Positions 9,012 to 55,938 of a stretch of DNA of 64,000 nt are shown one piece after another. The position numbers were made by a program, and so were the translations under genes. The stretch's first letter is position 1, and each line of letters opens with the position of its first letter. Under the pieces are notes generated by a model. It saw only the letters and a program-made list of their open reading frames with translations, did not search any database and had not been told where the DNA came from. Source of the stretch: Squalus acanthias (taxonomy: Eukaryota); NCBI GenBank assembly GCA_030390025.1, contig CM059431.1, positions 106,022,001 to 106,086,000 on the forward strand, read 5' to 3'.

Positions 9012-9048
9012 AGTTCTGACGAAGGGTCACAGACCTGAAACGTTGACC
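9012..9048 (+). ncRNA. Minimal hammerhead ribozyme motif (PLE family A)
   Basis: agtt-CTGACGA-a-gggtc-aca-gacct-GAAA-c-GTT-gacc: core intact, stem I weakened. Confidence 0.6.
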
Positions 9049-9610
9049 CTGTTTCCTCTCTCACTGCAGGTGCTGCCTGACCTGCCGAGAGTTTCCAACA
9101 TTTTCTGTTTGTATTTCAGTGATGTAGAGGACAAGTCAGTGACCATTTCTCAGAAATGTATTGAAGTTCTTCTCACCAACTGATCCGCTCCCGTCATTAG
9201 TCTTGTAGTGGTCATCGCTGGTCTCTTCATGATGTCAAAAGATCCCTGGATTTCTTCTTTTGCTAGCTGCTACCATATGAGGAATCTAACTCAAAAGCTA
9301 AAAAGATTGGGAATGTAAAGATCATGTTTTGATACACTATTGGGAGATTGTAGAGGAGCGGAATCCCTGGGGGATATCTAATACCTTCTTTATACCGAGT
9401 CCTTCGTGCCTTAATCTGAGCTCAGCGATTGAATTCCCAATATCAGACTGAAGTGAAGCTGACTGTTGTGCATTGGAGCCTCTCAAACACGGGACCTTTA
9501 TGACAGTCGTTGTAATTTTCAAGCAGTAGCAGAGCGTAGTCACAAATTCACGTACTGCAGGCTGGGTGGTCACAGCCCATTTACAGTGGTTTCATTCAGT
9601 GTTGGCATTT

Positions 9611-9952
9611 AAGAATGTAAGAACTAGGGGCAGGAGTAGGCCATACGGCCCTTCGAGCCTGCTCCGCCATTCAATAAGATCATGGCCGATCTTCTACCTC
9701 AACTCCACTTTCCCGTCCGACGCCCATATCCTTTGATTCCCCTAGAGTCCAGAAATCTATCGATCTTAGCCTTTAATATACTCAACAACTGCACCACAGC
9801 CCTCTGGGGTAGAGAATTCCAAAGATTCACAACCCTCTGAGTGAAGAAATTCCTCCTCATCTCAGTCTTAAATGGTCTACCACTTATCCTGAGGCTGTGA
9901 CCCCTAGTTCTAGACTCTCCAGCCAGGGGAAACAACCTCTCAGCATCTACCC
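9611..9952 (-). mobile_element. CR1 LINE 3' fragment
   Basis: RLFPLAGESRTRGHSLRI...FFTQRVVNLWNSLP. Confidence 0.9.
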
Positions 9953-10538
9953 CATCATCCTTTATGTCATCCTTATTTTGCTGCAGTATTGATAGGGTGT
10001 CAAACACAGAATTTGTCACGTCACACTGACAGGATTTACTACACATATGCATTAAAAATTTGGTGGCGAAAATTGGGCAGTGAATTGGACTCAGTCCAGA
10101 CTAATTCCAGCCCAGACCAATTGAATGAAAACCTTTTCTATCGCTCGGCTGTGCAATAAATTCTGGGCCATTCCCATTTGGCCTGGGCTCGTAGCACAAA
10201 ACTGGCGTTAAGATGGTGTGAAGGCACATTGCTGGGGCAGAGCAGGAGGATATTCATTCTGCATCTAGCATGCATGACCTGATGCTTGATGCTGACAGAG
10301 GGTGACACAAATGGGAAAGTGTTCCATTTCCCAGCACTAACATCTCTTTATTTTGATGAGCGCAAATGTTCACCTCATATTAGAAACTGGATGGTTCATG
10401 GTGCGCTGCGCTAAATTAATCAAAAATTGAGATCATATCATTCGCCATGAGAAAGAAACTCAAGCAGTTCGCGACAACCGAATTGGACTGCTGCCTGTAA
10501 TTTACTGAACTTCATAAACAGATATTGTATATGTATAT

Positions 10539-10970
10539 GGCACTTTACAGCCTTCTGGACTCAACATCGAGTTCAACAATTTCAGACCATAACCTCTGCC
10601 CCTATCTTTTTTTCTTTTTCTTCTCTCTCTCACATGGCAGCTGTCGATCATCCTGCCATTGCCATTTACACTTCATCTAGAGCCATCTTTTTTTTCTTAA
10701 CTTGTCCCATTACCATCTCCTTTTGCCTTGCACCATCATCCCTTTTGTCTCTTAATCTCTCCTGCCTTCCATCCTATCACAGACCTTCCCTTTTGTTCTT
10801 TCCTCCCCTCCCCCCATTCCCTGCCCCTACACTTGCTTAAAAACCTCTTCCATCTCTCACTTCTTCCAGTTCTGAGGAAGGGTCATCGACCTGAAACATT
10901 AACTCTGTTTCTCTCTCCACAGATGCTGCCTGACCTGCTGAGTATTTCCAGCATTTTCTGTTTTTATTTT
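10539..10970 (+). mobile_element. Penelope-like element 3' end (family A) with ORF C-terminus and hammerhead motif
   Basis: 10539-10592 reads GTLQPSGLNIEFNNFRP*, the TLxPxGLN motif that ends PLE GIY-YIG domains. A pyrimidine-rich UTR follows, then CTGAGGA-agggtcatcgacct-GAAA at 10872-10896. Confidence 0.8.
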
Positions 10971-12859
10971 ATATTATATATGTATTCATTGGAGGTAACC
11001 AAAATTTGATTTTTTAAGTATTTGCTTTTTCAACAACAATCTTTCTGTGAGGAAAAAATCCTCTATTTTCTTCCCAAATCTCACGGGCTTCCCCAGTGCC
11101 TGTACCACAGACCAGTCAAGAGGCTGGACAACCTGGATCCAGGCTTTTCTGAAGTCATTCTCAGCAAGACACCTGGTGACGTGGAAGAGCAGCCCAGGGC
11201 CAAGTCTCCTTGTGACCTTCCCTGCTCACTGCGAGAAGGCCCCCTTGGCATCACTCGGCACCTGCACACAGAGCGATGTTGATGAAATCACAACCTCTGC
11301 AAATCAAACCTTGGTTCCCCCGTCACAACAAAGCGTTGGTGCACCGATTGTACGGGTCACTGCACCACGGTCAGTGGTGGATCGCTCCAACATCATGCTG
11401 AAAGCATGCAACGTGACATAGGACACCGGGTTATTTCGGAAGGTAGATCGCACAGAAATCGAGTAACTATCCACATATAGATAATTGGAAGGCAAACGCG
11501 TGCTGACCCATACTTAAATTGTATTGCCATGAGCTGGAACCCGAGGAACCCCCATGTTAAAACCATGCAGGACGGTATGTATCCGGGAGCTGAATGAGAT
11601 CACAGCAGGAGCTGAAGTTGCATGACGGCAAGCATCAAGGAGATGTAAAAGGATAAAACAAAGATGTGTAGCGGGGGACACCCCACTGTGTAGATTCATT
11701 TGAAATAAGTTTCAATCTAATCTGATAAAATAGATCCACAGCAGCGGCCCTTGGAGGAGTGTGCAAATATCACAGGATTAGAATAGACCATTCTCTTCAG
11801 CAGCTTGCTCCCGTGAAGTCTACGGTGTTCTGGGATGTTCAGCAATTTTTTTGTGCATTAGGGTGTGTTAGGAACAGCTTAATAGAAAGCATATTCATTT
11901 TATTTTGGTGGGAAGGAACGGGAGAAAGGGTTATTGTTTAATGAACAGAACTTTTCAAGTCCATTAAGAGTGAACCATTGAATTAAAAACCATTCTAGTT
12001 CGATTAAAATACAGGAATAGGGCGAGGGTGGGGGAGAACTAACTGAATGAGACAGTCGTTGGGATTTGCATAGTTCAGCAATAACACAGAAGCCACGAGT
12101 TAATTTTGTCGTGTTAAATAAAAGACAGGCATTCAAAGCAAAATATTTCTCTAACTGGAACAAATTCACACAGTTAACACACTTAAAGGAGTTGAAAAAA
12201 CTGGGAACCGCAATTCAAAGACTTCTCTGCAGCAGGTCAAAAGAATTCCATTAAGATTATTAATGCAGCTAGCCGTCTGCTCAGCCAACATGAAAGACTT
12301 TACCAAGCTGCAATCACAAATAACCCATCAAACGGAGTAACTCACTCACAGCAATTTTCATAAAGAAATATGAAAGCGATTATAAGACGCTTGGGAATAA
12401 AGTGCAGATGGGATGCCAATACCTGCTGAGCTCTTTACAGGGAGGAACCCCACGGGAAGGGAAATGGCTGTGGACAAGTCACATATGGCTGCAAGGACCG
12501 CGCTTTAACCACTTGTGGGCTAATGATACTTTTTTTTCCCAAATGAATGTGACAAGATTCCTATTTTTTCCCCCTTTTGAGAGGAAAAAATTACTCTTCG
12601 GGCGGTCTTGTTCTGTTACACGTTCTTTGATTGGGTTTTAAAGACTACTGCCGTGACTCGTTATAGGTTAAATACAGACTGTGTGTTAAAGGGACACTCC
12701 ATTTCTGAAAAAGCATACACAGAGTTAAAGAACGATTCAGCACAGAAACAGGCCATTCGACCCTTCAAATCACGCCAGCATTCTCTTCACTTGAATCATC
12801 TGGTCTAATCCCATTCAGCTGCTCACCCATTCCTCCTCATAATCTGAAATCTTCTTCCT

Positions 12860-13095
12860 TTCGCACAAAGGGTAGAGGAAATCTGGAAAACTCTCTCCCC
12901 CAAAAAGCTGTTGAGGAGGGGCGGGTCAATGGAAAATTTCAAAACTGAGTTTGATAGATTGTTGTTAGGCAAGGGTCGTAAGGGTTATGGAACCAAGGCG
13001 GGTAAACGGAGTTGTGATACGGATCAGCCATGATTTAACTGAATGGAGGAACAGGCTCAAGGGGCTGAATGGCCTCCTACTCTTCCTATGTTCCT
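12860..13095 (+). mobile_element. CR1 3' end fragment
   Basis: cacaaagggtag..gaaatctgga...ggggctgaatggcctcct...cctatgttcc; same subfamily as 54567 and 59349. Confidence 0.8.
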
Positions 13096-14044
13096 TTTCA
13101 ACTAACTGAGTAACTTCTAAAACAATTTACAGACTCATCTTAAATGATGGCATGGACTCTGTTTCAAAATGTTTGTTTGGCAAACCTGTTTTCATTTGTT
13201 GAAAACCGCACAACCTGATCATATAAATCGTGCCAAAACCATCGTGTTACTTGCGTGTGATGCAACTGTGCTGAAGCTGAAAATATTCTACCTCCCCAAA
13301 CAGACAGTAAAGGTTTGCCAAATGCTTTTCCGTGCAGCCCAATGAAAAGCAAAATCTCGACAACCTCTGCACTCTTGGGGGGGGGGGGGGGGGGGAGGGG
13401 AGGAGAGGGGGGGAGGGGAGGGGGGAGCGTTCTGCTTCATTGACAGGTTCTGAGAACATTGCACGTGGAGGAAGAATTATTCCATGCCTACTCATCTGTG
13501 CGGCAATATAATCCAAGTTCCTTGACATGAATTGAAGTCTGTAGCTGACAGATATCACAATGGTAGCTGTAAATGGCACGGGCCTGTCCTACAATATGTA
13601 TAGGAAATGAAAGCCCATAACATTGCAGTATGAGTCAATCAGTATGAGTCATTCAGTTTGACAACATCACAGTTTAAGGCACACCGTGCAACCAGAGATA
13701 TTTGTTTCTCAATATTTAACCACAACTTCTGTCTTTAAATGTACATAGCATCACCTCGAAATTTGAAAGTAATTTTTCGGCCACAACGGCGAGTGTGTTG
13801 AGGCCTATCTTCTTGATTCCGCAGACTGTACGTGCTGCCAGAGGGAGGTCAGGACCCCAAACATTCCACCGCAGTATAGGCCCCATGGTATAGATGCAAG
13901 CCCAAATCTGGTTCCAGAGCCCGTCCTGATACCGAAACAAAGCGAAGGAGTCTCATACCACTTCACTTTGGAGTCGGCTTTCACGCGTGAGTTACATTCA
14001 AGTGTCAGTGTGAAACCTTGGGGAGTGTGAACGCATTGTAACAG

Positions 14045-14258
14045 TGATGCGGAGATGCCGGTGTTGGACTGGGTGGACAACAGTGAGAAGTCGCACAACA
14101 CCAGGTTATAGTCCAACAGCTTTATTTGAAATCACAAGCTTTCGGAGCGCTGCTCCTTCGTCAGGTGAAGTCTTCACCTGACGAAGGAGCAGCGCTCCGA
14201 AAGCTTGTGATTTCAAATAAAGCTGTTGGACTATAACCTGGTGTTGTGCGACTTCTCA
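14045..14258. mobile_element. Palindromic PLE-derived element (family B) with two inverted hammerhead motifs
   Basis: Perfect 87-bp inverted arms (14084-14170 / 14172-14258) with a 1-nt centre, a ~39-nt unpaired tail, and a 12-bp TSD gcattgtaacag (14033-14044, 14259-14270). Confidence 0.85.
14174..14210 (+). ncRNA. Minimal type-I hammerhead ribozyme motif (mirror copy on the minus strand at 14132-14168)
   Basis: tcac-CTGACGA-a-ggagc-agc-gctcc-GAAA-g-CTT-gtga: stem I tcac/gtga, stem II ggagc/gctcc, palindromic AGCT stem III. Confidence 0.75.
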
Positions 14259-14340
14259 GCATTGTAACAGGTTTTGGTTTAGGATTAATCCACCAATGCA
14301 GCAACTGCACTAAGAACAGCATTTTCCAAACTTCCAGGCT

Positions 14341-16250: not shown

Positions 16251-18224
16251 CAATCAGAGTGTTGCAGTAGGGTTCACTGTTCTGGGGGTAAGGCTAAGAC
16301 ACATTGCTGGAACAGTGTAAATGTACTCTACATCTGGCGAAGTTTGAACCTAACCTGGAAGAGTTTGATGCTGACACTTGATGCCAAATTGGAAAAACTT
16401 CCGATTTCCCACAAGTGTTATCCCTCACCAATAATTCATGCAAAAATTGTCCGAGTCCAAATGACATTCTTTTGCTCAATACATGTCAGCATGTTCAAAT
16501 ACACAATTTTCACCACCCTATCCCTACCATGTGCAGCCAAAGTTACACCCTGATGCTCAAAACTCTCAGGACAGAAATACGCAGGAGCAGGTAGAATGGC
16601 CAATAAAGTGCATATCCCATGGGCCACTTAGAAGGAAGTCTGACACAGAGCATTAAACAATCGCAGAAGACACAGGGAACAGAGGGCACACTGTCATTGT
16701 ACTGTGTGCGTACAGGAAAGGAGAAGGAAGTAAATCAGTAGGATCATTACTTAAAAACTTGTATTCAAAAACATTTTTAAACTGGGAAATAGTTTTTTTT
16801 TCCCCACCCAGCACTTAGAAGCTTTATAAAATCTCAGAGGCCTCTTCAGGTGCTTATCAAGCCTCGGAGGCTTTCTCAGTTCATATTTATTACATCAAAA
16901 CAAATCATGTTACAAATGTGTTACAGGTACCTGCAGAGACTCTGTACAGGTTATTAGATGATGAAGACATGTACACTGCAAGACAGAAAACAGTTTCAAT
17001 ACTTTAGGGTTTTACCTCACGCAAGAGTCAAACAGTAACACTGCGAGAATCTTTGCAGCCTAGAAATTACTGTCAGTGGTGTCATCGTATGCTTAATGGC
17101 TGGTATAAAGTTCGTCTCTTCATTATTTTAATGGACACCTTAAACGATTTATTTTAAATGAGTGAACATCGCCATTAAAATAATAGAGAGGAATATTCAA
17201 AAGAAGCAGGTCAAGTGTTGCTACGATAACATCATCGAGAGTCATTTCTAACCTTAAGTGTTTAATCAATCAACAACAGTAAAAGACCAAACAATGTGCA
17301 CGAGATACATTTGTTTAAATTATTCCGTTCCCATTCTCCTTTTTTTACACTGCCAGTTAATAGCAACCACAGTTCTCAGGCCTGTTACTGCTTCCAGCCT
17401 GCATTTGATTTTCAGAATCTCACCCAACAATTCTGGAATGTTCTCGCATTGTCAGATCGTATCGCTTGTGTGTCGGTGCGAGAAACCTATCGTCCGCTGT
17501 TTTAAATGACCGTTTCGGATTACCCTTCCCCATCACTTGTTATACATCGCGCACGCTGCTTGCCTGAGTAATTTACGCCTGTACTGAGTCACCAGCGGAG
17601 ACCTTTATTTCTCCCCTTGCAAATGGTCAGGATGGGAGTGTTTATCATTTTAGACACTTGCTCCTGTTTATTTTCATGAAAAAAAGTATTTTTCTTTCCT
17701 TTGAAGTTTAATAAGCAAATTCTCTTTTGGTTTCACCAGTTTTTTTGCCCAGTGTTTCATTACATCGCTGTTCAACCTCTCACAACATCCTCACTACTGA
17801 AAAAACAAGGAAAGGCTCACTTAAACCGTCAAACAAAAATTAAACATAGTTTACAGACAGAGCACACACTGGGCAACATGCTGCGCAGTCTCTCCCACTT
17901 GGAGGGCTGTTGTGAAAAAACGATTGCTTTCTGAAGTGTATCCTCTATTATGCTGCCACATGTCACATACACCCCAGTTCACTTTAACGAAGGCAAGCAA
18001 ATCCATGGAAATACCCGTCTCCCTGAGCCAGTATATTTTGAAGATTTTTAACTCACACACTCAAGCTGCTCTTGGCACCACAAAGGAAATTTTAAAAAAG
18101 GTTTTAAAAGCAAAAGTCATCCTGTTTGGGCATCTTTTGGTCCCCCGGATCCTCTTCGCGCTGTTTTCATCCAGCGGGAATGGCTTCCCTGCTCAGGCTA
18201 CCAGTTAAAATTGCAGTCGGGTCT

Positions 18225-18528
18225 CGATGACATCAACGGGACCCAATGACATCAACAGGAATCAATGACATCACCAGGAACCAATGACAGCATCTGGACC
18301 CAATGACATCACCAGGACCCAATGACAGCATCTGGACCCAATGACATCACTGGGAACCAATGACAGCATCTGAACCCAATGACATCACCAAGATCCAATG
18401 ACATCATCGGGAAAGAATGACATCACCCGAAACCAATCACATCACCAGGAATCAATGACGGCATCTGAACCAAATGACATCACCAGGAACCAATGACATC
18501 ACCAGGAACCAATGACAGCATCGAGACT
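18225..18528. repeat. 19-bp minisatellite, about 16 units (caatgacatcaccaggaac)
   Basis: Seen directly; two variants (…acatcacc… and …acagcatc…) often alternate. Confidence 0.9.
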
Positions 18529-19245
18529 CGACGTGCATATATAAAGAAGGACCCCGCTGGCTGTGGGCAGGTGTCCCTGCTGCCTGCTCAGTAGAGCAGG
18601 TTAAAATCTCAAACGTTGGGATCCTGGCAGGTAAGCAACCTGGGCAATTTTAACTGCCCACCCACCTGGTTTCCACCAGACAGGTAAAGTTAAAATCGCC
18701 CCCACTATTTGCTGAACCACAGCTGAAAAAAGAATGCTGAATAAATATGTTTTATTGGTGTTAACATGTTTGTCGATATTATAGGATCAAATATTCGAAT
18801 GAAATGTCTTCGACTGAGGAATATGTCATAAAGCTGTTTTGGTTTTCTAGAAACTAAAGGTCATTCTGCAAAGAATGAAATTAGTTCAGTCATAAAAGTT
18901 ACTAAACATTGGTGTTTGCCCTTCAATAGGAACTTCTCTCAACCCTCGCCAGTTTGTCTTGACTTTCAGAACGCCGCTCCTCTTTCACCTCTCTCCTCAA
19001 CTTAATTTGGTTTTCTTCGTAATAGCTAGGATTAGTGTGTGGTACTCTTGTCCTCACTATCATTAAACTGGCAGCCCTGGCAACTTGGAGCAAATCAATG
19101 TAGTTGCTGGGCCACTATTATTGTTGGTCCACTCTGACCTGAGCTAGGATACCTCTCCAACTTCTAAATACCACAATGTAGATGTGCGGATTCCTTTATT
19201 TTCACTCCAGTTTAGGCTCTTTCTCTGCTCTCTTGAAGATGTACG

Positions 19246-21103: not shown

Positions 21104-21305
21104 TAGAGTTTGGGTCAGAGTTGCCATCAGCCTCCGTCCTCTTGTCTGGGGAAGCCTGCTCGTAGAACTCGTCCTGCGGCTGAACCAGAGGGAGAGGGTG
21201 TGAGATCAGCGTGCCACCATTTACCGGCTCGTGGTCTCCTAAACCACTATCACTGCAGCTTTCCTGGGAGCCGTCAGGCAGGTGAAATGTAACGCGGCGC
21301 TGAGA
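21104..21305 (-). CDS. PCDH9: Protocadherin-9 internal coding exon (cytoplasmic domain, RRVTF PP1-binding motif and CM1-type motif)
   Basis: Minus strand encodes [67 protein letters not shown]. From memory this is near-identical to vertebrate PCDH9 and clearly closer to it than to PCDH11. Acceptor is polypyrimidine ttctttgctcttctctccAG (AG at 21307-21306); donor is GTAAGT (21103-21098). Exon is 202 bp, phase 0 in and phase 1 out. Confidence 0.95.
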
Positions 21306-22472: not shown

Positions 22473-22544
22473 ATCTCCTTAGTATTGTGGTTAGTATCCC
22501 CGCCTGTCATGCGGGAGACCGGGGTTCAATTCCCCGATGCAGAG
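22473..22544 (+). pseudogene. tRNA-Asp(GTC) pseudogene
   Basis: ttagtattgtggttagtatccccgcctGTCatgcgggagaccggggttcaattccccga closely follows vertebrate tRNA-Asp. The acceptor stem is disrupted, there are CpG-decay changes, and no T-run terminator. Confidence 0.8.
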
Positions 22545-26732: not shown

Positions 26733-26868
26733 AAAGAAAGGGCTTGCATTTATATAGCGCCATTCACGACCTCAGGCCGTCCCAAAGCGCTCGACAGCCA
26801 CTGAAATACTTTGGAAGTGTGGTCACTGTTGTGATGCAGGGTAACGCGGCAGCCAATTCGCGCACAGC
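26733..26868 (-). mobile_element. SacSINE1-like 3' tail
   Basis: gaaagggcttgcatttatatagcgcc...gcagccaattcgcgcacagca. Confidence 0.75.
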
Positions 26869-27008
26869 AGTTCTGACGAAAGGTCATCGACCTGAAACGT
26901 TGACCCTGTTTCTCTCTCCGCGGGTGCTGCCTGACCCGCTGAGCATTTTCCAGCATTAATTCCTGTTTCTCCTCCAGCTTTCCAGCATTCGCAGGGTTCT
27001 GCTTTTGT
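26868..27008 (+). mobile_element. PLE family A terminus with intact hammerhead core
   Basis: agtt-CTGACGA-a-aggtc-atc-gacct-GAAA-c-GTT-gacc (26869-26905) followed by the family A tail. Confidence 0.75.
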
Positions 27009-38955: not shown

Positions 38956-40639
38956 AATGTTTTTTTTCGTAAGTCAGCACTTGGGAGTCCAGACAGGCAA
39001 TTCAACCATGGGGTCATAACAGCCTATGCCGATCCCATCCTCACCCAAATTCAGTCGGGGACTCTGTGCTCCCTGACTGAAAACACAGAGCTATCAAGTG
39101 TCACTCATCTCAGGTGACAATCCCTCCTATAAAATAAAAACGGTAGCTGATATATTTTCAATAGGTTTGGGATCCGTTTCGCTCTTCCAGATCGTAAAAT
39201 TCACTGTTAACATTAAACCTCACATTGGCAGCCCTGTCCCACTGCTATCCCGATGGAGATCAGCAGCAAAGATTGAACCTGAGATCTTCCTGCATGGCTA
39301 AGTGCCGCACCAGGCAAACACACTTAGCCACTGAGGCGTGAAAGCAGCCCTGAAGCACTTACTTTTCTAATGGGTTTAAATTGCGCTGGGAGATCTTTAG
39401 TAACTAACGCATTGTGTTTCTACGAAATTCCTCTGTCCACTGTTTTAATCATGGCGTTAACCCATTTCGCGAATAGCGCACAGTTTCAACCTCTCAAAGG
39501 TTTCAAATATTATTTTTTTTTATCAAGCCTCTGAGGGCAGGACTTCATGCCACAACAATAATAATATCCTCACCGTCCCGGGAGGTGCAGGGCAGGCCAA
39601 TTTACCTCAAGCCTGGTGACAGCCCAAGACCAGCAGTTCAATCAACTGCTAGTCAGCAATCCAAACATGTTACGGTCCCACCCAGCCAACCTGCTCCCTT
39701 CCCTGAAACCATGTGGTGGGCTCACTGCTGCCAGAACTCAGAGACGCACGAACATCGGAAAGCTAATATAGTGGAAAATTACATTGCTGCCTGCAGTTAC
39801 CACTTGGCAGCTCGGCTGTATCACCTACGACACATAATCCCAATTTGTTCTATCGCCCAGTGTTTTACAACCAAGGAATTGATTCAGGCTTTGAGATCAG
39901 GCTTCCCAAGTCCTGAAGTGAGATTTTCCATTAGTAGAAAGGTAAACACATCTCTTGCATTTGAATTTCCTTGTGATCTGTCTTACTCCCAGTAATGTGC
40001 CATGGTTGACAACACTGTATTGCTCCCCAGCTTACTTATAACATTGCATGTCACATTTTTAATGATGTTTTATATGTCCACTATCAATGTAAGGCTGAAC
40101 AACAGCTCCACGGGCCTTTGCCAACCTTCCCGATTTAAGGAGAGTAATGAAATGCCTCCCGCTCCAACATTACTGCTTTATTCTTCCTTTCCCCATACCG
40201 CACTGTGATCATTTAATAACTACAGCCCCTGCAGAAGTCTCATGTCTTACTATCACGTTCAGTAGAAGCTCCAGTATAGTGTGGAGCTGCTACAATGCTG
40301 AAGCCCAAACAAAATCAGTCAGTATGACAAGCAGCAAAGGGAGGCTTCATGCCATTGCCTAGATGCCAATGCATATGTGATCAGGGACGAGGTAAGCTAA
40401 TTAAGCTTGCCTTGTGCAAGTCGATCTTTCTGACACCTCTTTGTTTCATTTTCTCTTAATAATGAAAAATAAACACTTTTGTTTTTTTCGCCTCTCCTTC
40501 CTTTCTCTTTGGACCTCTCCTTATCCTTTTTCACCCTGTTCACTTGTCCTCCTGATTTGTGATTTTTTTTAAATGCAATGAGGTTCAAACTCTTGTTTTT
40601 CTCTTTACAACCTTTCGGACTTTGCCCCCATTTTTTCAG

Positions 40640-41009
40640 ACGGCAGCTGTTGTTGATGATTCTACTATTCCCATTTACACCTCCTCTAGACCCATCTTTT
40701 GTTTCTTTACTTGTCCCATTACCATCTCCATTTGCCTTGCACCACCATCCCTTTTGTCATTTAATCTCTCCTGCCTTCCACCCTATCACAGACCTTCCCT
40801 TTTGTGCTTTCCTCCCCTCCCCGCTTTCCCAGCTTCTGTACTTGCTTAAAACCTGTTACATCTCTAACTTTTTCCAGTTCTGATAAAAGGTCATCGACCT
40901 GAAACGTTAACTGGGTTTCTCTCTCCACAGATGCTGCCTGACCCGCTGAGCATTTCCAGCATTTTCTGTTTTTATTTCAGATTTCTAGCATCCGTGGTGT
41001 TTTGCTTTA
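40640..41009 (+). mobile_element. PLE family A 3' end with mutated hammerhead
   Basis: ccagtt-CTGATaA-a-aggtc-atc-gacct-GAAA-c-GTT-aactgg (40874-40914): 6-bp stem I, core G8 changed to A. Confidence 0.75.
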
Positions 41010-42882: not shown

Positions 42883-44690
42883 TATTCTGGCACTAACACT
42901 CGGCATCTTACGTTGACTTGGCTTGCAGCTCCTGCTCTTCATATTGACATTATTAAATTGGAGGAATATATTGCACAAACATGTGGTAGAAAAGGAACAG
43001 CAACAGTAGGAGACTCCTGAAAAGACTATGCAAATCTCAGGCTTTCGCATAATGATAAATCTTGCCCCATATCGGCAGAGGAATTGCTCCATGCTGAATT
43101 GAGGCTGCATTTTTTTTTAAAAAAGGAGAAACCCTTGATAAATCAATCTCCACAATAAAAAAAGCATTCTAACAAACAGAAATGTAATTTGCTGCGTGCT
43201 TGTTTAAACAGCTGACTGGAGTGTTTATTATGCTTGATTGCTGCCCTTCAGCAACACTTAATACCTTTTTTCAATGAGCTGTCATCTCCGCAGCTACCGG
43301 ATGAGTAAGTTCAGATCATATAAGATCTGACATCGGCAAAATCTCAACCGCAAAACAATTTTATGTAGCGTCGGAGCTCGCATTTAATTTGGAATGACAA
43401 CTGTGTACCACAGCGTGTGTGTGAGATAGCTTCTGAAGCCCACACAACCTCTCCCCAGACTGCAGATGGAGCTGTTGGAGTAAATTTAACACCACTTCGC
43501 AACGACAATTAAAATTTCATGGCAGTAATAGGCAGCAACAGCGCTGCGCTTCCTCCCCACTCCTGTGTTATTTACTCTGGGGGAGGAGCGGGAAAACAGG
43601 TTTTCACAAACATCACAAGCAAGTAAAAAAAAATTGCTGTTTACCGTGTTAAAATTGAATAGTACCAAAACTGGTTGAGTAAATAAAAATGACAGTGGGA
43701 GGGAGGGAGGGAGGAGGGGGGGATATGAAGATATCTGTTACTGTTTGTTCGTCGACAAGCAAGACCATTAAATGGTCATTATATCAAGAATAATTTAATT
43801 GTTAGGCTAAAGCTACTGGATAATTAGGATCCCCTTTGAACACCAAGTGAATATTGCATGCTGTGTTAATATACTTTATTAGCCACAGAGGGACCACAAA
43901 AGTTATTAACTTGTTCATATAAAGCTCTTAAGAGGGGCAAAAGAGATTCCAAACATTTGGCATTAAGCAGCAGTTCTGCATTGTTTCAAGCACTAGCAGT
44001 CAAAAAGATGATTATCAGTTCAACACAGACATGTCATTAAGAACCACCCAAAGATTTGGTCAAGTGGTACCAGACATATCATTTTCTGGGGTGTATAGCT
44101 GTGGTACTAGAGTCGAATTGTAGGCGCCATTCAGTGTCACTCACAAGTGAGGAGTCTGAATGCTTCTGCTGTGCGATATAACCTTGTAGTAGTAGTAGTA
44201 TATTTTTCATCTGTAAGTTAAAGAAAGAAATCAATATATCTTACCGAAAGAAAAATCATTTTTGGCAGTTAACAAACGGTCAAGTTCGTGAAGGCATTCA
44301 GTACTCAAAAGGATCTGTGCAGTTTCATTTCCGTGATGTGTGCCAGTGGTAAAACACTTGCTTTGGGTGTTTGTTTAACTGCAATGTTAAGTAAACCTCT
44401 TTCATAAAGCAAGAGTGTATCGGCATTTTGTTTGGAAACTGTACACTCTCAGTAATTACAAATCCTGAATCCATTTCCCTATTTAGGAAGATTATCTACA
44501 TTATTGGGCAAAATACGCTCATCAAAAGAAAAAAAAAACAAATACCGAGTGACTGATGGACAGAGGCAGAAGCAGAGAAAGAGAGAAAGCACCATGAGTG
44601 GAGAGAATGAGAGCGAGAGAGAGCGAGAGAGAGAGAGACATAGTTGGAGAGAAAGAGAAGGAGCTAACTGCTAAACTAAGATTAGTTCCT

Positions 44691-44910
44691 AACAACAGAA
44701 ACTGCTGGAAACACTCAGCAGGTCAGGCAGCATCGAGGAGAGAGAAACAGAGTCAGCGTTTCGAGTCGGGGACCCTTCGTCAGAATGAAGTGTCCCCGAC
44801 TCGAAACGTTGACTCTGTTTCTCTCTCCTCGATGCTGCCTGACCTGCTAAGTGTTTCCAGCAGTTTCTGTTGTTATTTCAGATTTCCAGCATCCGCAGTA
44901 TTTTGCTATG
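44691..44910. mobile_element. Palindromic PLE family A element
   Basis: ~91-bp inverted arms (44690-44780 / 44785-44875) plus a right-hand tail; probable TSD attagttcctaa (44681) / attatttcctaa (44913); hammerhead-like core on the minus arm. Confidence 0.8.
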
Positions 44911-44964
44911 ATATTATTTCCTAATACATCTGCAAGTGTGCAGGGTATTGAGGTAAAAGATTAC

Positions 44965-46244: not shown

Positions 46245-46455
46245 CACAAAAGCAAAATACTGCGGATGCTGGAAATCTGAAATAAAAAGAGAAAATGCTG
46301 GAAATACCCAGCAGGTCAGGCAGCACCCGTGGAGAGAGAAACAGAGTTTAACGTTTCAGGTCGATGACCCTTCATCTGACGAAGGGTCATCGACCTGAAA
46401 CGTTAACTCTGTTTCTCTCTCCACGGGTGCTGCCTGACCTGCTGGGTATTTCCAG
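46245..46455. mobile_element. Palindromic PLE family A element
   Basis: ~79-bp inverted arms (46298-46376 / 46378-46455) plus a left-hand tail; probable TSD cagaatggcgaggga (46230) / cagaatgaagaggga (46453); CTGACGA...GAAACGTT at 46376-46404. Confidence 0.8.
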
Positions 46456-49015
46456 AATGAAGAGGGAGTTATTTTGCACCAGCCAGACGTAGAATGTTGC
46501 TAAAACCCTTTCTATCGCTCTCCCACCTGCACCACCTTTTCTCTGAACATGGTGGGGGTAGATTTTTCGCTCTGGGTGCAATCGGGAAATTGCGTCCAAA
46601 ATGCGCTTGGAATTGTGCTGCTGCGGTTACGGGTTTCTGCTGTAATTCATCTGTCTAATCGCACACGAACAATCCTCCATGAACCAGCGCAATGGGGCAG
46701 AAGATAATTGTTTCTTTTTTTCGCTCTCGCCGTTTCAAAGTATTCCTCGATGTGTTTAAGAGCGGTAACCTGGTGCAGTTTTATTAATGCAGCTGAAAAT
46801 GGGTTTATCACCAAAAAATAAGCATTTTTAATCAGGGTGTCCAGTCCTCTGCCTGTGAGTAACTTGATTTAAAATCACTGAAAACTACTTAAAAAAACGA
46901 TACTGAACCATTTAATAGTTTAATTGGTGTACACTAGTCCGTTTCTTAGTAAATTAAACATGTTTTGATGTAAAAAGACATTTAAAATGTGTCGACTGGT
47001 GCCTGTGCCCCGAAGACAATGAGCGCGATTTGAAGAGCCTTCCCGAACCAGCTTGATCGACGGAATCTCGCAACGTCCACCTGGGGGGGGGGGGGGGGGG
47101 GGGCGCGGCCAGTTTTGTGGGCGGGGCCTGATCTGGGAGAATCGAATCTTGAACCAGCGTGAAAGATCGCGGGAAATGAGCGCGAGTGGTTTTGGGCGTA
47201 GCTCATTGACGTTTTAAAGTTCCCCGATCCTGCGCGCTAGTTCGGCCAATTCCGCCCACATTGCGCTGACATAACTGGTGGAAACAAACGGAAGCGCGAC
47301 CCTCTTTGGTTTGACAACCAATTTGGAGTCGTTCATCCAGCAAATAAACCACTGATGCCAGGCAAGAGTAGCCCAAATAAGGCAAGTTAAAAAAAAAAGA
47401 AATGGCACCCACGGCAAAAACAAAGAGCGTTGACTTTCGAAGAGTTAAAGGACACAATTAGTTTGCACCGATGAGCTGATTTACAGTTGGGTTGGACAAC
47501 AAATCTTAGCTTGTTTTTAAACGGGGAACAAACAAAAAAGGTTTGCCCAGTGGGCTGCTGAATAAAGCATCATTGTGGACAGCTGAGGAGGAGATTGTGT
47601 ACTTGATCTTTTTTCAGTACTGTCAGCGCCAGTCAGTACTATCACAGCTTCACGCTCTGCACATCACCAATGCTAAATATCACCATTCAGACACTTTTGC
47701 CTTGTCAGAATTGCAATTTAATTCCTGAGGAGCTCGCTGACTGACCTCTCAAAATCCCGAAGCCTTTGATCAAAACGCAAGTGAAATGCAATAAATGGGG
47801 GAACGAGATGGTAGCTAAGCATTAATTGGGGGATGACAACACAAAGTAGCAGAGAGAGTTAATCAATGCACCCAATTCTGCGCCATTATCCTAGAGGAAC
47901 TGCAAACACCATGACATAGAGGCAGCTTTCCCCACCTCAACAAATGCCCCCAAATAGACCACGCAAAGTCCTTCTCCATTTTTGCATGTTACTTAGGATG
48001 GGACGGTGGGGGGGGTGGGGGGGGGGGGGGGGGGAGGAGGAGGGGGGGGGGGTGGCGGTTGGGGGCGGGGGAATGATGATCACAAACTATCTCCTGTTCT
48101 TCGACATGGATACAAAACGACAGGCTTCAGTTCGAGGCTTTCTGAAGCTGTCATTTCTAAAGTAGCCATTTCTGCTCCAGAACAAAGGACACTTTGCCAT
48201 CCTTCGAAATGATGCTAATCTTTCGGGACATGCCTTTTCAAAAAAAAAGATGAAATCACCATCGGAGTAGAGCACTGTTCACCCTCCACAGAGAAAATGA
48301 CCTCGGAATGGGAATCTTATCAAGACAAACAGATCTTTTGTGCATTCAGTATTACATTTAAAGCAAAAAGAAGGCAATTTGAGGTCTTGCTTGACAGCGC
48401 TGAACGCACTGCTGTTGATCCCATGCTGTGTGAGTGGCTGAAAATTACTGAATGTGGATAAACTAATAGTGCAGAGGTTACAAATGGACCCTTGCACCCG
48501 TTCCATGTAGCTTAGTCGCAGAACCGATCTACCTGTCATAACAATGCTTTGCACACAAAGATAAACACTTGTTGAAAGCACTTCACTCCTTAGGGGACAT
48601 ACTTAGCATCGTCAGGGCATGAGACAAGGCTATCGGTATGGTAACCACCATAGCCCCCCCCCCCCCCCGCCAATATTTAAATGCTATGGAGTTTATTATT
48701 CCCACTAGAGCTCACTGCCCAACAAATGAAGCCATTATCCACCATTTTACGCTGATCCAATCTGTCGATATTGTAAATGCAAAAAAAATCTTCACAGTAA
48801 GTGCAGTTAATCAGGAAATGTTCAGACAGAGGAGCACAGGCAACCGAGATTGGGATTCCATAAAGGACTTGTCTGAATACACCATGGGTTTTTTAATGCT
48901 ATGCTAGCCAACCACAGTGGTGATATTGTTCTGGTCCTTATGTAATTGGCAGATTTCCTGAATCTATGCAAGCTTTATTGCAAGTTCCACTACTTAGTCA
49001 AACGTGAAGCCTATT

Positions 49016-50222: not shown

Positions 50223-50377
50223 ATACCCACGTTTAATTTTACCGATGGTTACAGGTATAGGACCAGCTTATGCTTTAGTCTGTTTGTGTTAGCCACAGAG
50301 GCAGAGCAAAGGAACTCTGGTTCATGACCATATGCTCTGGCTCTGATAGTTACGTTTTAAGTGTACAGCTTAATTCA

Positions 50378-50920
50378 AGAATCATAGAAATTTACGGCAC
50401 AGAAGGAGGCCATTCGGCCCATCGTGTCTGCACCGGTCGAAAAAGAGCTATCCACCCTAATCCCACTTCCCAGCTCTTGGTAGCCTTGCAGGTTACAGCT
50501 CTTCAAGTGCATATGCACATACTTTATAAATGTGATCAGGGTTTCTGCCTCTACCACCCTTTCAGGCAGTGAGTTCCAGACCCCCACCACCCTCTGGGTG
50601 AAAAAAGTTCTTCTCAACTCCCCTCTAAACCTTCTACCAATTACTTTAAATCTATGCCCCCTGGTTATTGACCTCTCTGCTAAGGGAAATAGGTCTTTCC
50701 TATCCACTCTATCTAGGCCCCTCATAATTTTATACACCTCAGTTAGGTCTCCCCTCAGCCTCCTCTGTTTCAAAGAAAACAACCTCAGCCTCTCCAATCT
50801 TTCCTCATAGCTAAAATTCTCCAGTCCTGGCAACATCCTCGCAAATCTCCTCTGTACCCTCTCTAGTGCAATCACATCTTTCCTGTAATGTGGTGACCAG
50901 AACTGTGCGCAGCACTCTAA
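50378..50920 (-). mobile_element. CR1 LINE 3' fragment
   Basis: ALERVQRRFARMLPGL...FFTQRVVGVWNSLP. Confidence 0.9.
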
Positions 50921-51035
50921 CCTTCAGTAGAGGAAAAAATAATTTTCCTTTAAAAACATAATTATATTGCCCCATTGCATCAAAGCATAATTAAGCAGCA
51001 GTAGGAGATACAAGCTTAAGTGTTCATTGTACATC

Positions 51036-51222
51036 AACAACAACTTGCATTTGTATAGCGCCTTTAACGTAGTAAAACGTCCCAAGGCGCTTCACAAGAA
51101 GCGTTATCAAACAAACTCTGACACCGAGCCACATAAGGAGATATTAAGACAGGTGACCAAAAGCTTGTTCAAAGAGGCAGGTTGTAAGGAGCGTCTTAAA
51201 GGAGGAAAGAGAGGCGGAGAGG
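51036..51222 (-). mobile_element. L2 3' tail
   Basis: Same truncation point as the 21770 copy. Confidence 0.8.
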
Positions 51223-51297
51223 TTATTTTTATCTTCACTGCAGAAAGATATTAAGTCTGCACAGTGGAATGATTAACATTCATTATATAATACAATG

Positions 51298-51299
<2 letters not shown>

Positions 51300-51337
<38 letters not shown>
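51300..51337. repeat. (TA)n microsatellite
   Basis: Seen directly. Confidence 0.9.
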
Positions 51338-51344
<7 letters not shown>

Positions 51345-51841
51345 ATCAGTGTTAGTTAATTTTGCTGTTCATTAAATAGATAACTAAATAAATAACAGAC
51401 ATAAGGTGGATTAGTGATGGTACCATCGCCTGGCACTGCCCATTGGTGAGACGGCCTGTGATGTCTGCATATCCGTGTATTAAATGGACGCCGAATTGTT
51501 ACCACCTAAACCCCTCACACACATCATTAACTCAGGATTCTGTCTGAGAACATGTGTGAATACCAAGAACCAGAATCTGTACATTCAACGATAGCGGCCA
51601 AAAGTAATCTCTTCTGAGGCAGAATGTGTGAGGATCAGAGAAGGAGAGAGAGTACTGTACCAGTGCATTTTTTTAACAAGTCTCAAGACTCCTTGATGCT
51701 CAAGATTAATGATTTTTTTTTACATGCGTGAAAGAATTCACCAACAATGTTCCATTTATTAGCGCAGTGCTTTCTGCTTCAAAGCACATTTTAGGAATGT
51801 ATCACATGTAGCAGCCTTTTAAGTGATAACTAACTGTTTTT

Positions 51842-52003
51842 AGATGTTATTTTTTTCTTCACTGCAATAATTTATTTACTTGGTCGACAGAAAAATAACT
51901 AATGCTGATTTATATATATATAGCATTTTATTATGTAATGAATGATCCTCATTCTACTGTGCAGACTTGATAACTTTCTGCAGTGAAGATAAAAATAACA
52001 TCT
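51842..52003. mobile_element. Small AT-rich TIR element (MITE-like)
   Basis: 25-bp TIRs agatgttatttttttcttcactgca / tgcagtgaagataaaaataacatct (1 mismatch); inverted partial homologues at 51221-51360 and 21960-22075. Confidence 0.6.
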
Positions 52004-52186
52004 GAGTAGTTCCCTATCCCGTAATGCCCAGCACCAGAAAATGACTTGCAGATTGCAAATAAACAGCATTGTGTCTCATATTATTTTTACTCTTTCATTA
52101 AATATTTATGGTAATACATTTTACTAGACTAAGCAGAATTGTACTTATTATGATAATAGTTCCACAAGTTTTCAAAACGTCTCCAG

Positions 52187-52572
52187 GTGTCTTGGCTTGA
52201 CTCAGTGGGTAGCATTCTTGCCTGTGAGTCAGAAGGTCGTGGGTTCAAGCCCCACACCAGAGACTTGTGCAGATAGTCTAGGCTGACACTCCAGTGCAGT
52301 GCTGAGGGAGTGCTGCACTGTCGGAGGTGTCGTCTTTTGAATCAGACCTTAGACCGAGGCCCCATCTTCCCTCTCAGGTAACGTTCTCCCCGGTATCCGG
52401 ACCAATATTTCTCCCTCAACCAACACCTAAAAACCCACCTGGTCATTAACACATTGCTGTTTGTGGGACCTTGCTGTGCACAAATGGGCTGGCGCGCTTC
52501 CTATAATACAACAGTAACTACACTTCACTTCAAAACACCTTGGGCATCCAGAGGTGGTGCAAGTCTTTCTTT
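52187..52572 (+). mobile_element. SacSINE1-like SINE
   Basis: tRNA head (gactcagtgggtagc..gggttcaagcccc) and Deu-like gcagtgctgagggagtgctgcactgtcggagg. Confidence 0.8.
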
Positions 52573-53120
52573 CTTACGCCTCTTTTGTTTCACCACTTTG
52601 TCGCCAATGTTACTCCAAAGTCAGCTGCCATGTAAATGAGTTGGTTCCACGGCACTGGTGGCAGCTCATTTACAAAAGAGGCGATGTTCGCTCACAACCC
52701 TGACAGCAGCACCGCCTCCAACAGAGCTCTGCAAAGCTGCTGCAGCAGGCGGCCATCTTTTGGGTGAGGCAGCTTGAACAGCTAATTGGTTAACAGCCAA
52801 ATCTTCCAGGCCAATGAAATGGTTTTCTTTTGCACAGCACTTTCCTCACCCAGCTGACAAACTAGCAGCCCTAACAAAACGTGACTGGCAAGTGATCTTC
52901 AAGCAATGGCGCTCGTGCGGTATAAATGGATTCCTTCTTGAAGTGCATTGGCAGCACGAGGAACTCACTGGATGCAAGGATTACTGTGAGTTTCTGATAT
53001 CTTACAAGGAGCGACCCAAATGGTTTTGAAAGATTTTATAACTATATACACATGTGTATTTTACAATTTCAGTTCAATATTCCCTGATGTATCTTTCAGA
53101 CTAATAGGACGGCGTATTGG

Positions 53121-53572
53121 ACGTCAACCTTGGCTCAGTTGGTAGCACTCTCGTCTCTGAGTCAGAAGGTGAATGATTTGAGTCCCACTCCGGAGACTTG
53201 AGCCCTCCAGTGGGGAGAGGGAGCGCTGCGCTGTCGGGAGGGGCCGTCTCTCGGATCAAACGTTAAACCGAGGCCCCGTCTGACCTCTCAGGTGGGACAC
53301 GAAAGATCCCACGGCACTATTTCGGAGAAGAGAAGGGGAGTTCTCCCCGGTGTCCTGGGACAATATTTATCCCTCAACCAACAACTCAGGCAGATGATGT
53401 GGTCATTTATTTCATTGCTGTTTGTGGGAGCTTGCTGTGCACAAATTGGCTTCCGCGTTTCCCACATTACAACAGCGACTACAATTCGAAAGTGCTTCAT
53501 TGGCTGTGAAGCGCTTTGGCATGTCCTGAGGTCATGAAAGGCGCTATATAAATGCAAGTTTTTTCTTTCTTC
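53121..53572 (+). mobile_element. SacSINE1-like SINE
   Basis: Head, core (ttaaaccgaggccccgtctg) and tail (gcgctatataaatgcaagt). Confidence 0.8.
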
Positions 53573-54566
53573 TTGCTACATTATGCTTTTATCTTTGTCA
53601 GTCATTCTCTCTATCTACCCGTTTTGTATTTCATTTGAGGTTTTTTCTCTTTTTTTTCCTCTTGCTATTGATCTGCCTGCATTGTTGCTGGCGGAGAGGG
53701 TGAGTAGGTTCTGCTTCCTACATCTCTGCCAATATATTATAATCAGTAGCTAGGGGGTGCAAAGGATGAGCCCAGGTGACGTTTTTCCTCTCCCTGTGAG
53801 AAGTACCTGCCCTTCTGCTCACCCCATCTTGAAATCAGTCAGTCACTGCATGGGCTTTCCCAGAATAAACCTGGGATTCGCAACTCCACAGTACATCGTA
53901 TTAATGCTCCAACGCCTTCTGTCCAGTCTTTTCTAAAGGGGAAAAAGGATCCCCAGTGCCTTCGGAATGGGTGAGCTAATCAAAATCAAAATCGCTGCTA
54001 AAGAACTGATTGACTTCCTGAAAAATACAGCCAGCATGACCGCTGCTGAAAGGATGGCAACAGACACCTAGACAAAGACGTTAAGAAAAAAATCTGCATA
54101 GCAATCTCGCTGCTACCCACTATAGGGCACAGCATGTATCTGCATGAACTCATTTCTCTCACTCTCAAAACGTAAATTGTAACACAAGCTGCTATTAATT
54201 ACATGACTCTAGTTCTACTCACTTGTGGTATGGAGGTTGTTATATCTCTGCAGGAGCTCAGCTTAGATGAGCTCAGATGTTCAACATTAACGAATATTCC
54301 CCACATGTATAGCCATTTACTGAGAAGCTAGCCTTTTTTTTTGCTATGTGACCTGCTGCTTTTATCCCAGTGAAAACTGCTGACTTTTGCAGCTGAATAC
54401 AAGTCAGAACTGAAATCTATGATTTTGCTCCGTAAAGGCCAGAAGACCAAAAAATGTCAAAACTGTTTTCGTGTGATTGGACCTGCTCTCATCCCTTCCC
54501 CCCCCCCCCCCCCCCCCCTCGCCACGTTGTTAAACTTTTGTTTCACATGAACAAAACCGTGGTCGG

Positions 54567-54943
54567 ACTTAATTGAAGCGTTTAAGGAGATTCAAAGATT
54601 TGACAGGGTAGATAGAGAGAAACTATTTCCTCTGGTTGGGGGGCGGGAGTCCAGAACAAGGGGACATAACCTTAAAGTTAAAGCTAGGCCGTTCAGGAAG
54701 CACTTCTTCACACAATGGGTAGTGGAAATCTGGAACTCTCTCCCCCCAAAAAAGTTGTTGAGGCTGGGGGGGGGTCAATTGAAAATTTCAATACTGAGAT
54801 TGATAGATTTTTGTTAGGCAATGGTATTAAGGTTATGGAACCAATGCAGGTCGATGGAGTTAAGATGCAGATCAGCCATGATCTCACTGAATGTTGGAAC
54901 ACGCTCGAGGGGCTGAACGGCCTCCTCCTGTTCCTATGTCCCT
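54567..54943 (+). mobile_element. CR1 3' fragment
   Basis: gatagagagaaactatttcctctgg...ggggctgaacggcctcctcctgttcct. Confidence 0.8.
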
Positions 54944-55850
54944 AATTGCAGTGGAAAACACAGCAATCAGAGCTTGCGAACTTAAAGCTATCTTCTTCCT
55001 TTGCCTCCTGTCGGTTTTGTTTTACGCGTTTACAAGTTTTTAGTAATGGTCTGACTGATACTCTCATCGCCAAAGAAGGAAGTTCTCCATGCTTTGTCAG
55101 CGCAGTCAGTGTTGCATGGCTACAGTGTCTAACACGAGTGTGTTTGACAGACTTGGCCTTTGGTGAGATGAAAGCGTCTATCGTCTGTATTCAAGTCACT
55201 GCATTAGCTTTTCCATGTTCTGTCCAAGCTGCCGGAAACATAGCCAATGCTGATCACTGCAAGTGGCTCATGTAACATAGATTTCCTTAATTCTTATTCA
55301 AGTAAGTTGCCAGTCAAGGAGGACTCAGCCTTTCATCTCATTATAAAACTGTGAGTCATTAGAAAAAAATCTTGGCATTGAGGGAGAGAGAAAGAGATCT
55401 GACAGTTCAAATTTTAGTCAATCCTCACAGTTCCTTTTCTTATTTAAAAATAGACTATCTTCAACAAACAGCATGGCTTTTGTGCATGTTATGAAAAGCA
55501 GGTCTGTAACAAATAGAATATGAATGGTAAACTTTACAATTAACCATCAACACTCGTATCTCACATTTTTATTTAATAGTTCTTCTACCTTCAAGCGTGA
55601 TACCAAATCTTTTTTTTTAAAAGAGTGCTGGATGGTACATTAGGTTAGATAGTGATTGTTCACCTCCAGAACCTGGGTTCAAATGGGATTCAAATCTCCT
55701 CCGTCTGCCAGCTGTAAGAGTCTTCTGTGAAATGAGTTTCATCAGTCTCAAACCAGTTCTTAGTGGAAAGAGAACTTCCGCTAATTCAACACTGGGTTGA
55801 CAAGTGCACTCAGAAAGGGGGCTTAAAACAAACCTCTATATCTCTAAAAC

Positions 55851-55938
55851 AACAACAGAAAATGCTGGAAACACTCAGCAGGTTAGGCAGCATCGGGCAG
55901 AGAGAAACAGAGTTAACGTTTCAGGTTGATGACCCTTC
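55851..55938 (-). mobile_element. PLE family A terminus, hammerhead truncated
   Basis: Minus strand gaagggtcatcaacctgaaacgttaactctg...; the CTGA part is missing. Confidence 0.7.

Follow-up and report, generated by a model that had tools for sequence, protein, structure and literature searches.

Minimal hammerhead ribozymes have been described in Penelope-like elements (PLEs), and those of animals are, in the parts of the published work considered here, silent as monomers or when the element's protein is missing (PMC4209133, PMC11167929). As far as those reports go, PLE insertions are heavily 5' truncated, are flanked by short target-site duplications (TSDs) and may carry a head-to-head inverted second copy (PMC3846280; 10.1101/2021.04.23.441226), and they end in an optional tail of 30–40 nt, present in one arm only (PMC3846280; 10.1101/2021.04.23.441226; PMC11167929). 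These insertion features recur in the repeats reported here, which we call family A. In the window, i.e., the whole 64-kb stretch of DNA that was analysed, family A is represented by eight intronic insertions in a PCDH9-like gene, most of them with a decayed minimal hammerhead motif. We consider it highly probable that these are 5'-truncated pLTR copies of an endonuclease-bearing PLE, with minimal hammerheads that are predicted to be inert and neutral decay of the lone copies.

Family A and its probable parent element

The earlier note listed seven copies of family A, and family-A sequence is present at all seven named places (9012, 10868, 26869, 40874, 44751, 46376 and 55910). However, two of these (44751 and 46376) are two-armed palindromes rather than single copies, and an eighth fragment had been missed. 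The corrected inventory is as follows.

8231–8367, plus strand: 5' piece of the 9012 copy, cut off from the remainder by a CR1-type LINE fragment (~8368–8885)
8886–9119, plus strand: 9012 copy, with its hammerhead at 9012–9048; core and ACGT intact, helix I of only 3 bp; short 3' end
10539–10592, plus strand: ORF end, comprising the final 17 codons of the parent ORF with its stop, GTLQPSGLNIEFNNFRP*; the copy is 5' truncated at 10539
10593–10975, plus strand: 3' untranslated/pLTR part of the 10868 copy, the longest copy; short 3' end
10868–10904, plus strand: hammerhead of the 10868 copy, with ACGT changed to ACAT
26868–27005, plus strand: 26869 copy; core and ACGT intact, helix I of 3 bp; tail present
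40623–41008, plus strand: 40874 copy; G8-to-A substitution in the core, helices intact; tail present
44690–44907, both strands: 44751 insertion, a head-to-head palindrome
46249–46458, both strands: 46376 insertion, a head-to-head palindrome
55846–55938, minus strand: 55910 copy, starting just inside the core (~+3); short 3' end
61051–61100, minus strand: eighth fragment, 3' only and diverged, possibly of a sister subfamily

The copies are stumps of 50–440 nt, a nested set of 5'-truncated versions of one sequence that extends into the ORF, and neither a full ORF nor partial tandem or tandem copies of family A were found within the 64-kb window. The order of parts is the ORF end, ~280 nt of untranslated repeat, the hammerhead, ~100 nt to the first 3' end, and an optional tail of ~30 nt. 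In the 44751 palindrome, the minus arm has the core with U16.1 changed to C, and the plus arm has the tail without the core; in the 46376 palindrome, the plus arm has core and ACGT with a helix I of 1 bp, and the minus arm combines the tail with a broken core. The 26869 copy adjoins a SINE fragment and has its 5' end at helix I (-5 relative to C3).

The ORF end lies where it had been reported, and the proposal that the minimal hammerhead belongs to the terminal repeat of a PLE, anchored to an endonuclease-like ORF end, is supported by contigs from relatives, by the 3' ends and by PLE motifs in the part of PMC4209133 considered. In contigs from four organisms, the frame of the peptide GTLQPSGLN runs on upstream and encodes what looks like the end of a GIY-YIG domain; one and the same loose end, at 10539 and in frame, is shared by 22, 16, 40 and 211 contigs in 4/4 runs (4 of 24 listed runs, one per organism). 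The 17 codons of the window together with 10 in-frame codons of the relatives fit E-x3-I-x2-L-x-T-x2-P-x-GLN, a putative end of a GIY-YIG domain, and the ORF end may be Neptune-like. Pfam returned no family for the 24-aa ORF end or for a 100-aa frame over the PCDH9-like exon, and a reverse transcriptase and a full GIY-YIG domain were not recovered in the window or in pattern searches of other contig collections. Hammerhead patterns had no match in metagenome and prokaryote genome contigs, nor had the ORF-end pattern in metagenomes, collections that are not expected to contain shark DNA. In 40874, an open frame of 47 aa that crosses the hammerhead and was considered as a possible ORF start gave four candidates, none at E<=0.01, which is weak evidence.

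The 3' ends of family A, numbered with the 40874 copy as reference, fall at +94 to +103 in five arms, at +126 to +128 in four (40874 included) and at +82 in one, i.e., two classes ~30 nt apart whose difference is the PLE "tail". This tail is confined to one arm in 4/4 palindromes, two of which belong to family A and two to the other hammerhead family in the window, family B.

14045–14258, both strands: family B palindrome; both strands carry an intact hammerhead, the minus arm has a 39-nt tail, 12/12 TSD
57261–57583, both strands: family B palindrome with an internal spacer; both strands carry an intact hammerhead, the minus arm has a 34-nt tail, 12/12 TSD

Outside the core, where little shared sequence had been noted, the two families are unrelated, their local score being reached by 106/1000 shuffles. 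TSDs of 9–15 bp flank 4/8 family-A and 2/2 family-B insertions, and none was found in the window for 4/8 family-A insertions. The 10868 copy has a candidate 9-bp TSD, AT-rich and weak, at 10528 and 10977; the 44751 palindrome has one matching at 11/12 positions (44681 and 44913) and the 46376 palindrome one matching at 13/15 (46230 and 46453). That of the 55910 copy is 11/11 (55835 and 55937), and this copy was therefore truncated at insertion.

Two of the eight insertions are inverted head to head, and in 4/8, on either strand, the 5' junction falls within -5 to +7 of C3. No insertion (0/8) starts at the predicted hammerhead cut site, so hammerhead cleavage was ruled out as the origin of the 5' ends. 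Junctions of both kinds, 5' and fold-back, concentrate at the catalytic box, ~30 nt 5' of the cut site, and this bears on how PLE insertions end. In the origin that we propose, the PLE protein would nick DNA and reverse transcription would start at either of two positions within the RNA, leaving short or tailed 3' ends, two steps borrowed from published PLE work. Synthesis would often stop at helix I or the catalytic box of the hammerhead and may sometimes go on as an inverted second arm, yielding a head-to-head palindrome. To cut, the hammerhead of the source element would need either to dimerise through the palindrome ACGU or to have the PLE protein present, and lone copies would decay neutrally afterwards.

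The hammerhead motif

The CUGANGA and GAAA boxes are intact in 5/6 arms scored (9012, 10868, 26869, the minus arm of 44751 and the plus arm of 46376); in 40874 the change of G8 to A breaks the core. An extra A stands between A9 and 10.1 in 6/6 arms. Helix II (5 bp) is paired in 30/30 cells across the six arms in which it is present, and the variants named previously are there together with a variable loop, which bears out the claim that they are compatible. This is compatible pairing and not covariation, because the changes are one-sided (0 two-sided changes versus the commonest pair in six sequences) and the score is not above the shuffle control (reached by 340/500 shuffles); covariation was therefore discarded as structural proof. 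That stem III is ACGT holds for 4/6 arms, which have ACGT/GUU, but not for 10868 (ACAT) or the minus arm of 44751 (ACGC); the G at 10898 makes up 76–97% of contig depth in relatives. Helix I is 3–5 bp long in the four solo plus copies and 1–2 bp in the palindrome arms. None of the core-bearing arms (0/6) combines the core, ACGT and a 4-bp helix I, and core plus ACGT with a 3-bp helix I is found only in 9012 and 26869.

A strict minimal-hammerhead descriptor has six matches in the window (two in family A, four in family B) and none in 100 shuffles. Of the 12 Rfam matches to the window at E<=1, none is to a hammerhead family, as would be expected of a motif that lacks loop 3; the miRNA-like Rfam matches, all below the gathering score, were set aside as hairpin artefacts of the palindromes. 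Stability lends no support, with folding z-scores of -0.2 to -1.9 for four monomers, and in the predicted monomer fold of 9012 and 26869 the core is paired with the cleavage triplet. When dimers were folded freely, the results were swapped or core-paired structures and not a double hammerhead, under an energy model that does not score the catalytic core. The family-A hammerheads are predicted to be inert here, and the repeats are likely to be the inert ends of a PLE.

Strand orientation and alternative readings

The strands can be named relative to the host gene by one exon.

21104–21305, minus strand: internal exon of the PCDH9-like gene, 202 nt, with acceptor and donor present

The best Atlas match of its peptide is "PCDH9 protein (Fragment)" (score 0.93), and since the exon lies on the minus strand, the plus strand is antisense to the PCDH9-like gene, which confirms the orientation assumed in the earlier note. 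That note had also stated that solo copies with a complete or near-complete core are all on the plus strand, and had read this as purifying selection against free self-cleaving motifs. All core-bearing solo copies do lie on the plus strand (4/4), but two of these four are broken, and the numbers do not sustain selection. The binomial p is 0.125, a Fisher test (4,0 vs 0,2) gives p=0.067, and orientation among strictly intact cores gives p=0.47. Over all eight insertions family A is oriented 5:3 (p=0.73), or 5:5 with family B added. Among other repeats in the window the counts are 10:9 for CR1-type ends, 7:1 for a second LINE and 3:8 for a SINE, so that a LINE family without a hammerhead motif is more skewed than family A. 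Truncation at the core is found on both strands. Intact cores are missing from every gene-sense arm that is not part of a hairpin, and neutrality can account for this only as chance (p ~0.07–0.13). We attribute the strand pattern in the window to small numbers and to a truncation hot spot inside the core; a weak bias may still exist genome-wide.

Three other readings were weighed. The first, which we regard as very unlikely, is that a genuine but ordinary antisense bias targets cryptic splice-acceptor-like sequences of the repeat and not the ribozyme. On either side of the hammerhead lies an acceptor-like site made up of a pyrimidine tract and CAG, one just before helix I and one at ~+50, and at least one AG is present in 4/4 antisense-only copies versus 0/4 insertions that have an arm in gene sense (post hoc Fisher test, p=0.029). 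However, the pyrimidine tract of the site scored in 26869 is weak (8/17), the +50 AG is altered in 15–28% of contig depth in relatives, and a third acceptor-like site near +100 is kept in gene-sense arms (15/17 pyrimidines at 46278 and 13/17 at 55845). Splice acceptors have been put forward as one target of the antisense bias of ERVs (according to the part of PMC1794541 considered), and the D. virilis Penelope is described as having an intron that ends at helix I (PMC4209133, in part). No spliced joint at either site was seen among the contig joints listed.

It is very improbable that selection removes gene-sense intronic copies able to cut pre-mRNA, so that intact ones remain antisense or locked in hairpins. 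Besides the 4/4 antisense core-bearing solo copies, both solo gene-sense copies are without the core, and all three gene-sense CUGANGA cores (44783, 14164 and 57381) are predicted to be paired in hairpins (-174 to -237 kcal/mol). Yet the orientation test is not significant (p=0.067–0.47) and antisense solo copies are equally broken (2/4). Retrozymes are depleted from Xenopus introns according to a preprint whose portion considered here makes no mention of strand (10.64898/2026.07.22.740005). Other reports, likewise considered in part, point the other way: a single S. mansoni minimal hammerhead gave no cleavage (PMC4209133), the Anolis hammerhead cleaves only with the element's protein (PMC11167929), and hammerhead-cut introns are still spliced (second-hand account in PMC2995048). 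We hold as equally improbable the wider proposal that tens of thousands of PLE minimal hammerheads are weak dimer- or protein-activated cutters of pre-mRNA in vivo, strongly enough for shark-like genomes to have purged gene-sense intact intronic copies; if it were true, strand bias would be a genome-scale readout of ribozyme activity. Given its very high copy number, family A makes in vivo cutting by animal PLE hammerheads testable by a genome-wide orientation count of intact versus broken motifs. A literature search by title and abstract start, with most subscription journals outside its scope, found no orientation test on PLE hammerheads.

Finally, it is scarcely credible that the short copies are a non-autonomous hammerhead RNA (retrozyme or SINE-like, ~100–130 nt) mobilised in trans and not truncated PLE transcripts: although 4/8 copies start at the hammerhead and summed contig depth at helix II is 1.7–17x that of the upstream repeat (depth being neither copy number nor expression), the window has no tandem arrays, the nested truncations reach the ORF, and 0/8 copies start at the predicted cut site, the starting point expected of a cleaved or circular monomer.

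Comparison with known systems

The reading that we prefer, family A as decayed ends of a PLE, places it close to several described systems, each compared here with the parts of the publications considered. With the minimal hammerheads of PLEs (PMC4209133) it shares the CUGANGA box, an extra base before helix II and GAAA, as well as a palindromic 15.2–16.2 stem, the absence of loop 3, a short helix I and a U-rich upstream sequence. It also shares an NUH triplet, the GUU of family A occurring in several listed motifs, and the prevalence of solo truncated copies with some opposite-strand pairs. The pair 10.1–11.1 is mostly G-U or A-U in family A (G-C in 1/6), whereas G-C is usually conserved in minimal hammerheads, although such variants do occur in the published alignment (PMC4209133, in part). 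The part of that alignment considered contains no shark motif, "shark" has no match in its searchable supplement (PMC4209133), and our literature search found no description of PLE minimal hammerheads in a shark-like lineage.

Unlike the PLE insertions in the portions of PMC3846280 and 10.1101/2021.04.23.441226 considered, family A is present in the window only as 50–440-nt stumps. PAc (Poseidon, Anolis carolinensis) also has two 3'-end classes, explained in its case by two internal starts of reverse transcription, and likewise has a hammerhead close upstream of its 3' ends and, in the part of the report considered, no ends at the hammerhead cut site (PMC11167929). Non-LTR retrozymes, too, are PLE-derived hammerhead repeats, reported in one chondrichthyan in the portion of the preprint considered (10.64898/2026.07.22.740005). 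They are tandem arrays, whereas family A is dispersed and contiguous with an ORF end (10.64898/2026.07.22.740005, in part); with no head-to-tail tandem monomers in the window, family A was rejected as a retrozyme. Family A is thus one more family in the hammerhead class described in 2014 (PMC4209133, as far as the part considered extends).

Family A and its parent element

Family A is very likely a relic of the terminal repeat (pLTR) of a Penelope-like element (PLE), as judged from its sequence, and its parent is known here from an ORF end, short of the reverse transcriptase (RT). All seven sites at which the earlier note placed single copies are real and belong to one repeat, but two of them are two-armed palindromes (44690-44907 and 46249-46458). 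BLAST within the window added an eighth, 3'-only piece (61051-61100, minus strand) and showed that the 9012 copy (copies are named by approximate motif position) originally started at 8231 and was later split by a CR1-type fragment. The hammerhead motif is not due to chance: six motifs in the window, two in family A and four in family B, satisfy a strict descriptor that requires the core, at least 4 bp of helix II, a palindromic helix III, NUH and a 3-bp helix I, and 100 shuffled windows gave none. Rfam gave no hammerhead match in the window. Families A and B have no significant likeness outside the core, as had been noted.

Four public runs out of 24 listed, from four organisms, supplied contigs that were aligned to 10400-11050, a stretch that includes the ORF end GTLQPSGLNIEFNNFRP* (10539-10592). 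Upstream of 10539 they carry an identical 30-letter loose end (22, 16, 40 and 211 contigs). Manual translation in the frame of GTLQPSGLNIEFNNFRP* shows this end to be stop-free and to contain EEQHLIF, so that the copy in the window has lost the 5' part of a longer ORF. The proposed anchor to a PLE GIY-YIG C-terminus is an in-frame ORF end extended in relatives; the two pieces combined are a putative end of that domain, and Pfam had no match for the 24-aa ORF-end piece. Contigs in three runs (20, 21 and 223 of them) also commonly have a loose end before 10912, which points to a sister subfamily that would have the 3' part in common and a different helix II region, and to which 61051-61100 may belong. 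An open frame of 47 codons (40868-41008, plus strand) crosses the hammerhead and extends into the tail; the 10868 copy has 42 codons of it, and no protein relatives were found.

State of the family-A hammerheads
9012 and 26869: CUGACGA, helix II, ACGT and GUU triplet all kept; helix I of 3 bp
10868: ACGT changed to ACAT
40874: helices perfect; G8 changed to A
44751, minus arm: U16.1 changed to C
46376, plus arm: helix I of 1 bp
Remaining two palindrome arms and 55910: no box

With these defects, none of the six core-bearing arms is fully intact, and the claim that stem III is ACGT throughout fails in 10868 and the 44751 minus arm. Compatible variation of stem II holds in that all 30 helix II cells are paired, but the changes are all one-sided relative to the commonest pair and score no higher than shuffles. 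In the predicted monomer fold of 9012 and 26869, the core GACG pairs with the cleavage-site CGUU, which would be a non-catalytic arrangement. In run X1, 74% of the depth at the free N7 (10876-10877) has C and 25% has T, and no G-to-A change is listed at the adjacent essential G8, the sole G>A site being 10880; this hints at core constraint in the source elements, with reference bias as a possible alternative.

Insertion anatomy and loss of the box

Insertion anatomy is independent PLE evidence. Counted from C3, 3' ends lie at +94 to +103 (five arms), +126 to +128 (four, one being the reference copy) and +82 (one). Both A and both B palindromes have a 3' extension on one arm only (39 and 34 nt in B), which corresponds to the 30-40-nt 'tail' at one end of inverted PLE insertions described in PMC3846280 and 10.1101/2021.04.23.441226; for an Anolis element, PMC11167929 traces the tail to two internal RT start sites.

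Target-site duplications (TSDs)
46249-46458: 13/15
55910: 11/11
44690-44907: 11/12
10868: 9/9, AT-rich
Both family-B insertions: 12/12

TSDs were sought and not found at the other four family-A copies. Because they flank truncated and palindromic copies, truncation and inversion date from insertion. In the second family-B palindrome, the arms are separated by about 100 nt of non-element, itself mostly palindromic sequence (57388-57490), which might be flanking or foreign DNA picked up in the fold-back. The 55910 insertion adjoins a tRNA-headed SINE (55948-56610, plus strand) split by a LINE 3' fragment (56001-56207).

The 5' junction lies at -5 to +7 of C3 in four of the eight family-A insertions (p about 0.002 against a uniform null, post hoc, with window choice allowed for).

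5' junctions or palindrome centres at the helix I/CUGA box
Family A: 26868, 44785, 46375-46379 and 55938
Family B: 14171

The predicted cut site (+29), at which none of the eight insertions starts, lies about 30 nt downstream of this cluster, and hammerhead cleavage was rejected as the source of 5' ends. Loose ends of relatives at 10870-10877 echo the cluster (in run X21, 109 contigs start at 10870 and are dissimilar upstream of it). Three of the four runs also have opposite-strand joints near 10888. Since junctions cluster at the box on either strand, its loss is a frequent outcome of insertion. The hot spot might come from transcripts that start there, from an intron that ends at helix I, as happens in D. 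virilis (PMC4209133), or from RT stopping.

Strand orientation within the host gene

A 202-nt minus-strand exon (21104-21305) has a pyrimidine-rich acceptor and a GTAAGT donor; its nearest Atlas cluster is named 'PCDH9 protein (Fragment)', at a score of 0.93 and a recognition value under the tool's reliability mark. Neither long-ORF listing nor motif searches gave further exons in the window, the rest of which appears to be intronic. Elsewhere lie a tandem array of 19-nt repeats (18189-18560) and a tRNA-like sequence (22474-22544, plus strand; 38.7 bits, over the Rfam gathering score) with acceptor-stem mismatches.

Complete or near-complete cores in solo copies were said to occur only on the plus (antisense) strand, gene-sense ones being broken; four of four against none of two do follow this pattern, but the skew is not significant and completeness does not extend to full intactness. 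That the pattern stems from splice-acceptor-like sites in the repeat rather than from the ribozyme is improbable: two of the sites fit (4/4 versus 0/4, p=0.029, post hoc), but the third is retained in gene-sense arms.

Candidate acceptor-like sites (pyrimidine tract and CAG)
10868 and equivalents: just before helix I
10921 and equivalents: about +50, then ATG
40979 and equivalents: about +100, at tail start

Still less probable is purifying selection against gene-sense self-cleaving motifs in the pre-mRNA, as the earlier note proposed: the core is absent from both gene-sense solo copies, and all three gene-sense cores are predicted to pair within hairpins, but the solo-copy skew gives p=0.125 (binomial), 0.067 (Fisher) or, for strictly intact cores, 0.47, insertions counted by main arm are five plus and three minus (p=0.73; 5:5 with B added), local repeats scatter as widely (CR1-type 3' ends 10:9, second LINE 7:1, SINE 3:8), and the mechanism is doubtful. 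A single minimal hammerhead did not cleave and dimers did little (PMC4209133), the Anolis motif needed protein to cleave and its cut site matched no read ends (PMC11167929), and hammerhead-cut introns remained spliced in work cited by PMC2995048. No strand-bias test of PLE hammerheads was found in the literature covered, which was incomplete.

Comparison with known hammerheads

In sequence, family A agrees with the PLE minimal hammerhead as given by the consensus in the PMC4209133 supplement; its main departure is at pair 10.1-11.1, which is mostly G-U or A-U. A literature search of incomplete coverage found no description of the family. On these sequence features, family A is very likely a further member of the already described PLE minimal hammerheads.
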